This document shows, in pieces, positions 34,002 to 40,912 of a stretch of DNA of 64,000 nucleotides. Each line of letters begins with the position of its first letter. Position 1 is the first letter of the stretch. The translations under genes were made by a program, and so were the position numbers. Under the pieces are notes generated by a model. It had not been told where the DNA came from. It worked only from the letters and a program-made list of their open reading frames with translations, and searched no databases. This DNA comes from Escherichia coli (GTDB taxonomy: Bacteria > Pseudomonadota > Gammaproteobacteria > Enterobacterales > Enterobacteriaceae): NCBI RefSeq assembly GCF_041248615.1, contig NZ_CP158426.1. One strand, written 5' to 3'.

Positions 34002-34217
34002 ATGAAATCCATGGACAAAATTTCAACGGGCATTGCCTACGGCACCTCCGCAGGCAGTGCTGGCTACTGGTTTTTACAGTGGCTTGATCAGGTCAGTCCG
34101 TCACAGTGGGCTGCGATTGGTGTACTGGGGAGTCTGGTTCTGGGCTTCCTGACTTATCTGACAAATCTGTACTTCAAAATCAGAGAAGACAAGCGTAAGG
34201 CTGCACGGGGAGAGTAA
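34002..34217 (+). CDS. Holin, phage 21 S-like pinholin (dual start MKSM/MDKI)
   Basis: 71-aa [32 protein letters not shown]...; two TM segments; GAGG RBS. Confidence 0.8.
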
Positions 34218-34221
34218 TTCA

Positions 34222-34572
34222 ATGACTCAAAACTATGAACTGATTGTGAAAGGGATCCGCAATTTTGAGAATAAAGTTACGGTAACTTTAGCGTTACGGG
34301 ACAAAAAACGCTTTGACGGCGAAATTTTTGACCTGGACATCTCGCTGGACCGTGTTGAAGGTGCCGCGCTGGAGTTTTATGAGGCAGCAGCCAGAAGGAG
34401 CATCAGACAGGTCTTCCTGGATGTTGCTGCCGGGTTATGTGAAGGGGATGAGCAGTCGCCGGAAAAGCGCCCCGTAATTTTAGAGGCGCAGAATGTGTGG
34501 ATAACCTACAAAGGAAAGCTACCAGGAAGAATTACTGGTTCTCTGAAGACTCCTCCGGAATCACAACCTTAA
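34222..34572 (+). CDS. YdfR-like protein between holin and endolysin
   Basis: 116-aa ORF in the slot YdfR occupies in Qin as I recall; no catalytic motif. Confidence 0.45.
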   Translation: MTQNYELIVKGIRNFENKVTVTLALRDKKRFDGEIFDLDISLDRVEGAALEFYEAAARRSIRQVFLDVAAGLCEGDEQSPEKRPVILEAQNVWITYKGKLPGRITGSLKTPPESQP

Positions 34573-34635
34573 GTCACTGACCGGAACAGATAAACCTGTC
34601 CGTGGGCAGAAACCGATAAATCCTGATAAATATCC

Positions 34636-35169
34636 ATGAACGCAATAATCAGATACGGCCTGTCGGCTGCCGTTCTGGCACTGATTGCCGTCGGTGCGCC
34701 CGCGCCTGATATTCTCGACCAGTTTCTGGATGAAAAAGAAGGTAACCACACAACGGCATACCGCGATGGTTCCGGCATCTGGACCATCTGTCGGGGTGCC
34801 ACGATGGTGGATGGAAAACCCGTTTTTCCCGGTATGAAACTGTCGAAGGAAAAATGCGACCAGGTCAACGCCATTGAGCGTGATAAGGCGCTGGCATGGG
34901 TGGAGCGCAATATTAAAGTACCACTGACCGAACCACAAAAAGCGGGTATCGCGTCATTTTGTCCCTATAACATTGGCCCCGGTAAGTGTTTTCCATCGAC
35001 GTTTTATAAGCGGCTGAATGCTGGTGATCGTAAGGGCGCATGCGAGGCGATTCGCTGGTGGATAAAAGATGGTGGGCGCGATTGCCGCATACGTTCAAAT
35101 AACTGCTATGGACAGGTTATTCGTCGTGACCAGGAAAGCGCATTAGCCTGTTGGGGAATAGATCAGTGA
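34636..35169 (+). CDS. SAR endolysin (T4-type lysozyme fold)
   Basis: 177-aa ORF; N-terminal SAR-like [18 protein letters not shown]; EG..T catalytic region ([22 protein letters not shown]). Confidence 0.85.
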
Positions 35170-35633
35170 GCAGAGTCGCCGCGATTATTTATGCTCTGGT
35201 TATCTGCATCATCGTCTGCCTGTCGTGGGCGGTCAATCATTACCGTGATAACGCCATCACCTACAAAGAACAGCGTGATAAAAAAGTCAGTGAGCTGAAG
35301 CAGCTGACCGCCACCATCGCTGACATGCAGCAGCGTCAGCGTGATGTTGCTGCGCTCGATGCAAAGTACTCGAGAGAATTAGCCAATGCGAAAGCTGAAA
35401 ATGAAACTCTGCGCGCTGATGTTGCCGCTGGTCGTAAGCGCCTGCGGGTCAATGCCAGTTGCTCCGCAGCCGTGCGTGAAGCCACCGGACCCACCAGCGT
35501 GGATAATGCAACCAGCCCCAGACTGGCAGACACCGCTGAACGGGATTATTTCACCCTCAGAGAACGGTTGATGACGATGCAGAAGCAACTGGAAGGGGCA
35601 CAGCTATACATTCGTGAGCAATGTCTCAGATAA
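35151..35633 (+). CDS. Rz i-spanin (start may be GTG at 35166)
   Basis: N-terminal TM, coiled-coil body; overlaps endolysin stop. Confidence 0.75.
35386..35571 (+). CDS. Rz1 o-spanin lipoprotein, embedded in Rz in the +1 frame
   Basis: [24 protein letters not shown]... lipobox VVSAC, Pro-rich mature part. Confidence 0.65.
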
Positions 35634-36060: not shown

Positions 36061-36600
36061 TTAGAAACTGCGTGGAGCTGTGGAAAGAATGGATGTCAGT
36101 TCTTCCTTCGATAAATCCCAGCTTCGATTTACAGCGTCAATTTTCTTAAACTCATCAAGCATTGCGTTATAGAGATGTTCTGTACGTGAATGAGTATTGG
36201 CAATGGGCTGTTTCTGTTCGGGGAAGCGATCAATTTTCTGATATGCCTCAATGATACTGAAGTAATCGCATTCATTATGACCGTCGAAACCTGGGAGCTG
36301 AATTTCCCCATCATGTATTTTTAGATGATGGTCACGGACTAATTCTTTTTGCTCGTCATCACTAAGTTTCCTGAAAGCATTGGAAAGTCCGCGGTACATA
36401 TTCAAGACAGCAGTAACAAAATCACGATCTTCTTTACTTGGTTCATCAACATCCAAATGTGAATATTCGGCCTTCATAACCCAATCATTACCAGATGACA
36501 CAGCATATTTTACAAGCTGTGGATCAATATCAGTTTCGATACCTAGGTGGATGGCAATGTCACATAACAAAATGGTATTGATTTTATCCTTAATATCCAT
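36061..36600 (-). CDS. YfbU-family (UPF0304)-like protein, opposite-strand moron
   Basis: 179-aa ORF; resemblance to E. coli YfbU in the C-terminal half is by recollection only. Confidence 0.45.
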   Translation of the reverse strand: MDIKDKINTILLCDIAIHLGIETDIDPQLVKYAVSSGNDWVMKAEYSHLDVDEPSKEDRDFVTAVLNMYRGLSNAFRKLSDDEQKELVRDHHLKIHDGEIQLPGFDGHNECDYFSIIEAYQKIDRFPEQKQPIANTHSRTEHLYNAMLDEFKKIDAVNRSWDLSKEELTSILSTAPRSF

Positions 36601-37237: not shown

Positions 37238-37720
37238 ATGTCAGGACCTCCGAAAACCCCGCCACGCCTGCATTTGATTCGAGGCAACCCCTCAAAGCGC
37301 CCCGTTAAAGACCACAAAAAAACCGCTAAAAAGGATGAAAAAGGTCTTCCTAAAATTCCGCAGCATTTAGGGGCTCAGGGGAAGTACTGGTTCAGGCGAA
37401 TGGCGGAAGAGCTGAATGCGGAAGGGATCATTTCTCAGCTTGATGCGCGTGCGCTCGAGTTGCTGGTGGAAGCCTACACCGAATATCGGCATCACTGCGA
37501 AACACTCGATGTTGAGGGGTATACCTACCGCACGGAAACGCAGAGCGGTGATGTACTGATTAAGGCGCACCCCGCGGCGGCAATGAAAGCGGATGCCTGG
37601 AAGCGGATCCGGGCAATGCTTGCAGAGTTTGGTATGTCACCGGCAAGCCGGGCTAAAGTAAATATCGCCGGACCGGATGATGTTGATCCGCTGGCGGAGC
37701 TTTTAAAAGCGAGAGACTGA
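37238..37720 (+). CDS. Terminase small subunit
   Basis: 160-aa ORF immediately upstream of and coupled to terminase large subunit. Confidence 0.75.
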   Translation: MSGPPKTPPRLHLIRGNPSKRPVKDHKKTAKKDEKGLPKIPQHLGAQGKYWFRRMAEELNAEGIISQLDARALELLVEAYTEYRHHCETLDVEGYTYRTETQSGDVLIKAHPAAAMKADAWKRIRAMLAEFGMSPASRAKVNIAGPDDVDPLAELLKARD

Positions 37721-39477
37721 TGGCAAAAGTGGCTGACGGGATCCGCTACGCCGAACGTGTTGTTGCAGGAGAAATTGTTGCTGGCGAATTTGTCCGCCTG
37801 GCCTGCCAGCGTTTTCTTGATGATCTGAAGTACGGCGAAGAGCGGGGGATTTATTTCAGTGAACCCCGTGCGCAGCACATCCTGAATTTCTACAAATTTG
37901 TGCCTCATGTAAAAGGGGCGCTGGCAGGCCAGCCCATTGAGTTGATGGACTGGCATGTATTTATCCTCATTAATATTTTTGGTTTTGTCATTCCGCTGGT
38001 CAATGAAGAGACCGGGGAAGTTGTCATGCGCAGCGATGGCAGCGGACGTCCGGTGATGGTGCGCCGGTTCCGGACGGCGTACAACGAAGTCGCCCGTAAA
38101 AACGCAAAATCAACTCTGTCATCGGGTATCGGCCTGTATATGACGGGGGCAGATGGTGAAGGCGGAGCTGAGGTGTATTCAGCCGCAACCACGCGTGACC
38201 AGGCCAGAATCGTGTTTGAAGACGCCAAAAATATGGTCAGAAAAGCCCGGTCGACACTCGGGCGGTTGTTTGATTTCAACAAGCTGGCGATTTACCAGGA
38301 GCAGAGCGCATCAAAATTTGAACCGCTTTCTTCGGATGCAAACAACCTGGATGGTCTGAACATCCACTGCGCCATTATTGATGAGCTGCATGCACATAAA
38401 ACTCGTGACGTGTGGGACGTTCTGGAAACGGCAACCGGTGCCCGTCTGCAGTCCCTTTTATTTGGTATCACCACGGCAGGGTTTAACAAGGAAGGGATTT
38501 GTTACGAGCAGCGTGATTACGCCATCAAGGTATTGCGTGGCTATAACAGCGACGTGGAGGGCGCGGTAAAAGACGACTCCTACTTTGCGATTATTTACAC
38601 CCTCGATGAGGGAGATGATCCGTTTGATGAAACGGTCTGGCAGAAAGCGAATCCCGGCCTGGGCATCTGTAAACGCTGGGATGATCTGCGTCGCCTGGCG
38701 AAAAAAGCGAAAGAACAGGTCTCTGCGCGGGTGAATTTTTTTACCAAACACATGAATGTGTGGGTAACAGCAGAGTCTGCCTGGATGGACATGATTAAGT
38801 GGGATAAGTGCGAATACATTGCCCCACGACATGAGCTGAAAACGTATCCCATGTGGGTCGGCGTTGACCTTGCTCATAAGATTGATATCTGTGCGGCGGC
38901 AAAACTCTGGCGAACGGATAACGGGCATGTTCATGCCGATTTTAAATTCTGGCTTCCGGAAGGACGGCTGGAACGATGCTCGCGGCAGCAGGCAGAACTT
39001 TACCGGAAGTGGGCGGAGATGGATAAGCTGATTCTGACGGATGGTGATGTTATCGATCATGCTCAGATAAAAAGTGACTTACTGGAATGGATTGGTGGTG
39101 AAAACCTCAGGGAACTGGGATTTGACCCGTGGAGCGCGATGCAGTTCAGCCTGGCACTGGCTGAAGAAGGGATACCGCTGGTGGAGGTTCCGCAGACGGT
39201 TCGCAATCTGTCAGAGGCCATGAAGGAAACGGAATCACTGGTCTATGCCGGGCGTTTCCATCACAGCAATCATCCGGTCATGAACTGGATGATGTCTAAC
39301 GTTACGGTAAAACCGGACAAAAACGACAATATCTTCCCGAATAAATCCACGCTGGAAGCCAAAATCGACGGCCCTGTTGCGATGTTTACAGCAATGAGCC
39401 GGATGCTGGTCAATGGTGGTGAACCGGAGCTGGATCTGTCTGAACATCTGGTCAGCGTGGGCATCCGCTCGCTTTAA
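37720..39477 (+). CDS. Terminase large subunit
   Basis: 585-aa ORF with ATPase and nuclease-domain motifs (IIDELHA; [10 protein letters not shown]). Confidence 0.9.
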
Positions 39478-39488
39478 CCGAGGTCATT

Positions 39489-39671
39489 ATGTTTCTGATA
39501 ATTCTCGCGCCACTGGTGGGCGTGCTGGGGGCGCTTTTGCTGGCGTATGGTGCCTGGCTGATTTATCCCCCGGCGGGTTTTGTTGTTGCCGGGGTGCTGT
39601 GCCTGTTCTGGTCGTGGCTGGTGGCGCGATATCTCGACCGTACACAGCCGTCTGTCGGCGGAGGTAAATAG
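39489..39671 (+). CDS. Small two-TM membrane protein between terminase and portal
   Basis: 60-aa [29 protein letters not shown]...; abuts portal start. Confidence 0.4.
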
Positions 39672-40912
39672 TGTTCTTTTCGGGATTATTTCAACGAAAA
39701 AGTGATGCGCCGGTGACCACGCCAGCAGAGCTGGCGGATGCCATCGGGTTGTCTTACGACACCTATACCGGAAAGCAGATCAGCAGTCAGCGGGCCATGC
39801 GACTGACGGCGGTTTTTTCCTGCGTCAGAGTGCTGGCAGAGTCGGTCGGGATGTTGCCCTGCAATCTGTATCACCTGAACGGCAGCCTGAAACAGAGGGC
39901 CACCGGCGAACGTCTGCATAAGCTGATCTCCACGCATCCCAATGGCTATATGACGCCGCAGGAGTTCTGGGAGCTGGTGGTCACCTGTCTGTGCCTGAGG
40001 GGAAACTTTTACGCCTACAAAGTGAAAGCATTTGGCGAAGTGGCTGAACTGCTGCCCGTCGATCCCGGTTGTGTGGTACCGAAGCTTAACAGTCGCTGGG
40101 AGCCGGTCTATCAGGTCACATTCCCGGACGGTTCCACGGATGTACTGAGCCAGGAAGATATCTGGCATGTGCGCACGCTGACGCTGGACGGTCTGGTGGG
40201 ACTGAATCCCATCGCCTATGCCCGCGAGGCAATATCGCTGGCAGCAGCGACCGAAGAGCACGGGGCCAGACTGTTCAGCAATGGTGCGGTGACGTCCGGT
40301 GTGTTGCGTACAGAACAGACGCTGTCGGATCAGGCTTATGAGCGCCTGAAGAAAGATTTTGAGGAGCGTCACACCGGGCTTGGCAATGCTCACCGCCCGA
40401 TGATCCTTGAGATGGGGCTGGACTGGAAGTCGATGGCGCTGAACGCCGAGGACAGCCAGTTCCTGGAAACCCGCAAGTTTCAGCTTGAAGAAATCTGTCG
40501 TCTGTTCCGGGTGCCGTTGCACATGGTGCAGAACACCGATCGCGCCACCTTCAACAATATCGAAGAGCTGGGGCTGGGATTTATCAACTATTCACTGGTG
40601 CCGTATCTGACCCGCATCGAACAGCGGATCAACACCGGACTGGTACGAAAAAGTAAGCAGGGCGTTTATTACGCCAAATTTAACGCCGGGGCGTTACTGC
40701 GCGGGGATATGAAGTCCCGTTTTGAAGCCTACGCCACCGGGATCAACTGGGGAATTTACTCTCCCAATGACTGCCGCGACCTGGAAGATATGAATCCGCG
40801 TCCCGGTGGGGATGTCTATCTCACACCGATGAACATGACCACGAAACCCTCCGATGGCAGTAAAGCCGGTAAGCAGAAGGATAACGCCAATGCAGACGAA
40901 ACAACGTCTTGA
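39671..40912 (+). CDS. Portal protein (HK97-like)
   Basis: 413-aa ORF following terminase; portal-like length and position. Confidence 0.85.
   Translation: MFFSGLFQRKSDAPVTTPAELADAIGLSYDTYTGKQISSQRAMRLTAVFSCVRVLAESVGMLPCNLYHLNGSLKQRATGERLHKLISTHPNGYMTPQEFWELVVTCLCLRGNFYAYKVKAFGEVAELLPVDPGCVVPKLNSRWEPVYQVTFPDGSTDVLSQEDIWHVRTLTLDGLVGLNPIAYAREAISLAAATEEHGARLFSNGAVTSGVLRTEQTLSDQAYERLKKDFEERHTGLGNAHRPMILEMGLDWKSMALNAEDSQFLETRKFQLEEICRLFRVPLHMVQNTDRATFNNIEELGLGFINYSLVPYLTRIEQRINTGLVRKSKQGVYYAKFNAGALLRGDMKSRFEAYATGINWGIYSPNDCRDLEDMNPRPGGDVYLTPMNMTTKPSDGSKAGKQKDNANADETTS

Follow-up and report, generated by a model that had tools for sequence, protein, structure and literature searches.

A gene for a predicted two-helix membrane hairpin that appears to be inherited with the portal gene in Proteobacteria phages

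Among the described phage proteins closest to the one considered here, gpW of phage lambda is a soluble alpha/beta protein, and DUF1056 (PF06341) comprises small proteins encoded between the large terminase subunit (TerL) and portal genes of Gram-positive phages. Morons have a promoter and a terminator of their own and a foreign composition. In phage T4, genes 40 and 20 are not known to lie side by side. The T4 portal initiator gp20 depends on gp40/YidC, which provides a precedent for membrane-bound portal initiation (PMC9958956).

The nearest described relatives form the PHROGs family phrog_502, which is labelled 'membrane protein' and placed in the category 'moron, auxiliary metabolic gene and host takeover'. 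Its catalogued members include phiP27 L37 and SfII_03, both annotated as 'putative integral membrane protein', as well as ST64B sb3 and Azospirillum phage Cd gp30. Both gene and family have been catalogued before, and the gene is of ordinary occurrence: the copy described here is 92-100% identical to many catalogued copies, and hundreds of database entries are identical to it. Our search of the literature found no description of a strict family-wide coupling of this gene to the portal gene or of a function for it.

The window analyzed, a 64,000-nucleotide stretch of Escherichia coli DNA, contains a prophage of the phiP27/SfII/ST64B type, with the module found in phiP27, SfI/SfII/SfIV, ST64B and phi467. 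Its TerL-portal junction was matched in 1946 of 5426 complete E. coli genomes and was 100% identical in many chromosomes.

The hairpin gene and its conservation

The original prediction described a 60-aa open reading frame (ORF) with two transmembrane (TM) segments located in the TerL-portal junction and ending in a stop codon that overlaps the start of the portal gene. Coordinates, hydropathy and the AlphaFold2 model all agree with this description. The elements of the junction are as follows.

37720..39477, + strand: large terminase subunit TerL (PF03354 + PF20441, phrog_9), the usual 5′ neighbour; Pfam and PHROGs
39480..39483, + strand: Shine-Dalgarno (SD) sequence GAGG of the hairpin ORF, 5 nt 5′ of the ATG; read from the sequence
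39489..39671, + strand: hairpin ORF, 60 aa, member of phrog_502; sequence, ORF translation and profile match
39660..39665, + strand: portal SD sequence GGAGGT, within hairpin codons 58-59; sequence
39669..39673, + strand: stop/start overlap TAGTG (hairpin TAG, portal GTG); sequence
39671..40912, + strand: portal protein gene (PF04860), the constant 3′ partner of the hairpin; Pfam

The ORF starts with the ATG at 39489, 11 nt after the TerL stop codon (TAA, 39475-39477), and ends with the TAG at 39669-39671; the portal GTG begins on the final base of this stop codon, at 39671. It lies on the same strand as the late packaging/head operon around it. The portal product matches PF04860 with an E-value of 5e-108. 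The TAGTG overlap is taken as a signal of translational coupling from hairpin to portal.

The mean Kyte-Doolittle hydropathy over 19 residues exceeds 1.6 at approximately residues 1-24 and 28-47 of the protein. AlphaFold2, supplied with 106 homologs, predicted helices at residues 2-25 and 27-51 with a pLDDT of 82. Together with conservation, these predictions divide the protein into four parts.

39492..39563, + strand: helix 1/TM segment 1, residues 2-25, with conserved P8, G11, G14 and G21; hydropathy, AlphaFold2 and conservation
39564..39578, + strand: tight turn YPPAG, residues 26-30, the signature motif of the family, predicted periplasmic; alignments and AlphaFold2, topology by the positive-inside rule
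39570..39629, + strand: TM segment 2, residues 28-47, with invariant G35 and a CLxWSW motif; hydropathy, AlphaFold2 and conservation
39630..39668, + strand: variable, polar and basic C-terminal tail, residues 48-60, predicted cytoplasmic; alignment

Basic residues precede helix 1 in those family members that have N-terminal extensions, and R/K follow helix 2 in all members; both features fit an N-in/C-in hairpin. This is the topology predicted by the positive-inside rule, with a short basic tail in the cytoplasm. Near the C-terminus G58 and G59 are invariant in the enterobacterial alignment A1, and in the window copy their codons spell the portal SD. The product of the ORF is thus predicted to be an inner-membrane helical hairpin of about 60 aa.

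With the hairpin protein only insignificant hits were obtained in Pfam and NCBIfam; in particular, DUF1056 was not matched by the window hairpin at E<=1. Pfam assigned no family to 106 relatives, gpW and DUF1056 included, the latter being absent from their hits at E<=0.01. The best hit of a PDB sequence search was a tetraspanin TM helix (E 0.39). Foldseek against PDB gave V-ATPase subunit e as the best hit (E 1.8), a two-helix hairpin being too simple for an informative fold search.

The open frame itself says little about coding. A stop-free run of at least 60 codons was found in 52% of mononucleotide shuffles of 39478-39671, so ORF length is no evidence for the gene and the case has to rest on comparative data. 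Residues 1-55 of the protein aligned to positions 3-57 of the 58-position phrog_502 profile with an E-value of 1.6e-27, and the profile was also hit by 106 of 106 diverse representatives of the family. A word-indexed search recovered 163 homologs with 58-98% identity across Enterobacterales, nearly all of them 59-61 aa long. A profile search of 1.84 billion representatives gave 286 clusters at 50% identity, nearly all of 50-70 aa, and with a second profile 1328 clusters were obtained at the 90% level, their names pointing to Burkholderiales, Azospirillum, Reyranellaceae and uncultured Caudovirales. With more than 1300 protein clusters, the family nevertheless has neither a Pfam entry nor a structure. 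In the alignment of the 106 representatives the mean column identity is 23%, G21 and G35 are invariant, and the core reads G-x-x-G-A-x-L-x-x-Y-G-A-W-L-I-Y-x-P-A-G-x-I-V-x-G. Phages whose hosts are gamma-, beta- or alphaproteobacteria keep the frame, the length and the hairpin motif even where identity falls to about 25-30%.

Variable sites were distributed over codon positions 1, 2 and 3 as 13, 5 and 18. Among close variants dN/dS of the hairpin was 0.36. Over 112 non-redundant loci its range was 0.29-0.47; in these pairs the adjacent portal gave 0.06-0.43. These values point to purifying selection on the hairpin ORF, weaker than that on the portal. In pairs with portal amino acid identity of 0.75-0.9, pS was 0.15 for the hairpin and 0.51 for the adjacent portal; this low value suggests either a recombination boundary inside the portal gene or an extra constraint on synonymous sites of the hairpin. 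RNA structure within the ORF, including the 'terminator' annotated in SfII, folded no better than shuffles (z=0.01), and Rfam contained no family matching within the ORF.

These data bear directly on the suggestion that this might be a spurious ORF in a short, GC-rich spacer from which no protein is made. Apart from the frequency of equally long frames in shuffles, that reading can call on overlapping ORFs in other frames and on the lack of annotation in several reference genomes (SfV, SfIV, PY54). It does not account for a frame, length, motif and hydropathy that are conserved family-wide down to about 25% identity, for the excess of variation at codon position 3 with dN/dS below 1, for a good SD at the right spacing or for a confidently predicted AlphaFold2 hairpin, and there is neither an RNA structure nor an Rfam element to explain the conservation otherwise. 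We consider a spurious ORF extremely improbable and drop this part of the original prediction. The comparison of terminase-portal junctions proposed with it found the frame conserved wherever the ORF exists, which favours a real gene. Absence of the ORF, or a frame that is not conserved, in homologous phages had been named as evidence against it. The ORF is indeed absent in HK022-type relatives, which shows only that the gene is not universal; elsewhere the frame is conserved. Overall, the comparative data identify the ORF as a genuine protein-coding gene of the very large phage family phrog_502.

How general the gene is was judged from 12 phages, sampled from the 1486 records that contain a homologous portal. 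A hairpin was present in five of them: Azospirillum Cd (gp30, E=3e-20), vB_EcoS-813R8, Ralstonia YO102_2, Klebsiella Kp4875-4 and, with a weak match, Vibrio K265. No hairpin was found in HK022, Providencia PSTRCR_117lys, Moraxella Mcat13, KpF5, Pseudomonas BR178a, NatCom_3357 and Streptococcus Javan255. It was missing only from portal lineages at or below about 39% identity. The statement that the junction is normally tight is therefore true of part of the portal family only. The gene is widespread in Proteobacteria phages and not universal, and it is not essential to HK97-type assembly as such, since HK97/HK022-type relatives do without it.

Annotation of the family is uneven. PY54 (L002, AJ564013) has an unannotated hairpin of 63/65 aa at 2295/2301-2492 with TAATG and TGATG overlaps. 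In SfIV (KC814930) the gene at 2376-2483 is likewise unannotated; the SfIV genome paper lists TerL as orf-2 and portal as orf-3. SfV (L183, NC_003444) contains an unannotated 53-aa hairpin ORF at 2289-2450, apparently overlooked owing to a portal start placed too far 5′: the annotated GTG at 2392 overlaps the hairpin ORF by 59 nt. Judging from vB_EcoS-813R8, the SfV portal probably starts at the GTG about 11 nt 5′ of the hairpin stop. Several ON4706xx records of E. coli phages name the hairpin 'head-tail joining protein W'. A 92%-identical copy is present in OR844959.1 (H12), a 1764-bp record of 'Enterococcus phage Efm 3-10', which is probably mislabelled or a contaminant.

Linkage to the portal gene

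In distant members of the family (about 30-45% identity) the PF04860 portal followed immediately in all seven cases with an identifiable 3′ gene, and the gene on the 5′ side, where present, was always a phrog_9 TerL. The pairing of hairpin and portal holds with S78-type (HK97-type) and S49-type proteases alike. To extend this we used an Azospirillum-led profile, which retrieved 80 divergent viral contigs; the hairpin is present in every one of them. The portal was directly 3′ of the hairpin in 79 of the 80 loci. Stop and start codons overlapped at 73 of 80 unique hairpin-portal junctions, by 1 nt at 60 of them (TGATG 42, TAATG 11, TAGTG 7) and by 4 nt (ATGA-type) at 13. An SD core within 18 nt of the hairpin stop was present at 31 of the 80 junctions.

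The distance from TerL to the hairpin is variable in these loci, up to 2 kb. Cargo between the two includes an opposite-strand methyltransferase, a 4HBT thioesterase, an M50 peptidase and a seven-tRNA array; between hairpin and portal cargo was found in one case only (L162). Since cargo sits 5′ of the hairpin, insertions are evidently tolerated there and almost never between hairpin and portal. No hairpin-portal fusions were seen among the 80 loci: seven apparent long ORFs proved to be maximal-ORF artefacts overlapping the TerL 3′ end. A hairpin-specific motif at the portal N-terminus (MxGLFGSLA/MFFSGLF) was also considered and rejected, as two portals of hairpin-less Firmicutes phages have a similar N-terminus.

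The tRNA array, made up of seven genes (Asn, Met, Thr, Glu, Arg, Gln, Leu), separates TerL from the hairpin-portal pair at 1640-2432 of a metagenomic phage contig (L139); just 5′ of it is a 189-aa ORF with an ADPPY motif and no Pfam hit. Another locus (L160, 2611-5007) has a portal ORF of 798 aa, in which an insertion of about 345 aa splits the PF04860-like region, profile positions 2-290 and 266-394 mapping to residues 3-295 and 640-771; the insertion could be an intein or an inserted domain. In Streptococcus phage Javan255 (L092, 872-2357) toxin-antitoxin-like genes fill the TerL-portal junction, and TerL appears split, with a 56-aa 'terminase large subunit' fragment 3′ of the insertion. Gram-positive phages, too, have an insertion hotspot at the TerL-portal junction.

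Co-divergence was analyzed over 103 non-redundant loci, giving 4512 locus pairs. Hairpin identity correlated with portal identity with r=0.90, and the partial correlation given TerL was 0.86; between hairpin and TerL, given portal, it was -0.03. Where TerL identity exceeded 80% and portal identity was below 50%, the hairpins of a pair averaged 26% identity. In the reverse case, with portal above 80% and TerL below 50%, the average was 90%.

Mosaic phages define the exchanged unit more closely. SfII and SfV share 96.7% identity in TerL, with differences confined to the last ~19 residues, and only 29.5% in the hairpin and 27.2% in the portal. Between the window and SfII the identities are 36% for TerL, 92% for the hairpin and 99% for the portal, and in spite of the low overall value both TerL proteins share the C-terminal tail ...GIRSL. 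The exchanged unit therefore consists of the TerL C-terminal tail, the hairpin and the portal; in the window its first part is the following.

39436..39477, + strand: last 13 codons and stop of TerL, swapped with hairpin and portal independently of the TerL body; protein and DNA alignment

Recombination breakpoints lie about 15-19 codons 5′ of the TerL stop in the window, SfII (L184) and SfV (L183). TerL bodies and C-terminal tails are shuffled independently, the tail staying with the portal type. In lambda and T3/T7 TerL docks to the portal through its extreme C-terminus, and the behaviour of the tail would be consistent with the same role here.

Hairpin and portal thus appear to form one inheritance and expression unit, because they lie on the same strand, the hairpin lacks both a promoter and a terminator of its own, its stop overlaps the portal start, and its divergence tracks portal and not TerL. 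Their co-segregation could come from adjacency alone, because the hairpin is flanked by the portal-specific TerL tail on one side and the portal on the other, and any exchange in which these two stay matched would carry it along. That this is a real late gene and part of the portal unit we regard as highly probable.

Candidate roles of the hairpin

The likeliest role is that of a portal accessory, because the protein would be made together with the portal and is kept with each portal lineage. As the best explanation we infer a late inner-membrane partner or accessory of the portal in head assembly or packaging, and give this roughly an even chance. Hairpin and portal would be translated together from the late operon through stop/start coupling. 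At the cytoplasmic membrane the hairpin might then hold or nucleate either the portal ring or the portal-terminase docking step, whether in prohead initiation or in packaging. A specific T4-like mechanism of this kind, with the hairpin as membrane partner of the portal or packaging vertex, is put forward only tentatively. More doubtful is the wider proposal that the hairpin is a dedicated portal membrane anchor or nucleator in a large branch of HK97-fold Proteobacteria phages, co-adapted in each portal lineage. If true, prohead assembly initiated at the membrane, as conceived for T4, would also apply to ordinary temperate phages, and there would be a handle on how exactly one portal vertex is set and terminase docking localised. 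Against a portal role are the frequency of stop/start overlaps throughout phage late operons, the many homologous portals that go without a hairpin (in 7 of 12 portal-first phages) and the cytoplasmic parts of the hairpin able to touch the portal, which are very short and variable.

The tight junctions could also mean that the ORF is mainly a translational-coupling leader, in which termination and reinitiation set portal output relative to TerL and the peptide is largely incidental. Such a leader would explain why stop and start overlap at 73 of 80 unique junctions when a canonical SD core precedes the portal start at only 31 of 80. It would also agree with the C-terminal GG, invariant in alignment A1 and encoded here by the portal SD, in a tail that is otherwise variable. 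A leader needs no set sequence, yet G14, G21, YxPAG, G35, WS and two hydrophobic helices are kept across more than 100 clusters with 23% mean identity and dN/dS below 1. HK022 and Providencia couple TerL straight to portal without a hairpin, so a leader is not required, and the window portal has a strong SD of its own. We consider this explanation very unlikely.

The hairpin might instead be a late host-directed membrane protein that merely lies beside the portal and acts in superinfection exclusion or immunity (like T4 Imm and HK97 gp15), in depolarisation or in lysis timing. The original prediction allowed for this in suggesting a moron. Other genes of the prophage are as follows.

34002-34217: P21-type holin, PF04971 (1.4e-35); Pfam
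34002-35633: complete lysis cassette of holin, lysozyme, Rz and Rz1
35386-35571: Rz1 lipoprotein ORF embedded in Rz
36061-36600, - strand: YfbU-domain ORF, 179 aa, PF03887 (2.5e-11); Pfam

The N-terminus of the cassette lysozyme is hydrophobic and SAR-like. Genes for an HNH endonuclease and TerS are also found 5′ of TerL. The YfbU-domain ORF, located between the lysis and packaging modules, has a low GC content (0.39; GC3 0.34) and looks like a genuine moron; it served as an internal contrast for the composition of the hairpin. GC3 is 0.656 for the hairpin, 0.674 for the portal and 0.344 for this opposite-strand ORF of the same prophage. The only promoter-like site on the + strand has its -10 hexamer 3′ of the hairpin ATG, there is no terminator between hairpin and portal, and promoter and terminator counts were at or below shuffle expectation. 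None of the 5027 defence models of PADLOC-DB was hit at E<=1 by the window, SfV and Cd hairpins; the PY54 hairpin gave E=0.44. A weak match to a holin family (0.0038) was obtained for one of 106 members. A holin was rejected as the identity of the hairpin, which lies outside the lysis cassette and has no significant holin-family hit, in a prophage with its own P21-type holin; because the lysis cassette is complete, a holin role for the hairpin is unnecessary.

A host-directed function would suit a small protein with two TM segments, an architecture shared by many exclusion, holin and antiholin proteins. It would also suit the filing of the family by PHROGs under moron and host takeover, the many homologous head modules that do without a hairpin, a dN/dS above that of the portal and the single weak holin-family hit. 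Against it, the lack of a promoter and terminator of its own makes expression from a repressed prophage unlikely, composition is native, defence models are unmatched, holin families are unmatched at a significant level, and a complete holin/endolysin/spanin cassette is present elsewhere in the prophage. The deep co-divergence with the portal, with real cargo placed 5′ of the hairpin, is unlike mobile host-directed cargo. We judge a host-directed role unlikely and, on the same evidence, do not retain the moron reading; the hairpin should count as neither moron nor noise. If the hairpin acts on the portal, as in the preferred portal-accessory role, HK97-like phage assembly would include a membrane step; otherwise the hairpin is simply a small late membrane protein that occurs commonly.

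Comparison with known systems

Like the hairpin, HK97 gp15-type morons and T4 Imm-type exclusion proteins are small inner-membrane proteins encoded in or next to structural operons. Unlike morons, the hairpin gene has no promoter or terminator of its own, has native GC3, co-diverges with the portal and matches no defence model. Class II holins and pinholins (phage 21 S) resemble it in their length of about 60-70 aa, two TM helices and N-in/C-in topology; unlike them, the hairpin is encoded in the packaging/head operon and not in a lysis cassette.

The lambda gene for gpW is similar in being a small gene between TerL (terminase A) and portal (B). Identity with gpW was rejected, as the hairpin has no Pfam gpW hit at E<=1 and two hydrophobic helices are predicted for it, and the 'head-tail joining protein W' label is a positional mis-annotation.

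T4 gp40 and membrane-bound gp20 share with the proposed role of the hairpin the concept of a phage membrane factor acting on the portal at the inner membrane (PMC9958956). The portal family and head module of T4 differ from those of the hairpin phages, no relationship in sequence is expected, and the likeness is one of concept only. From phrog_502 the window hairpin shows no difference: it has the same length, the same two-helix form and the same position between TerL and portal.
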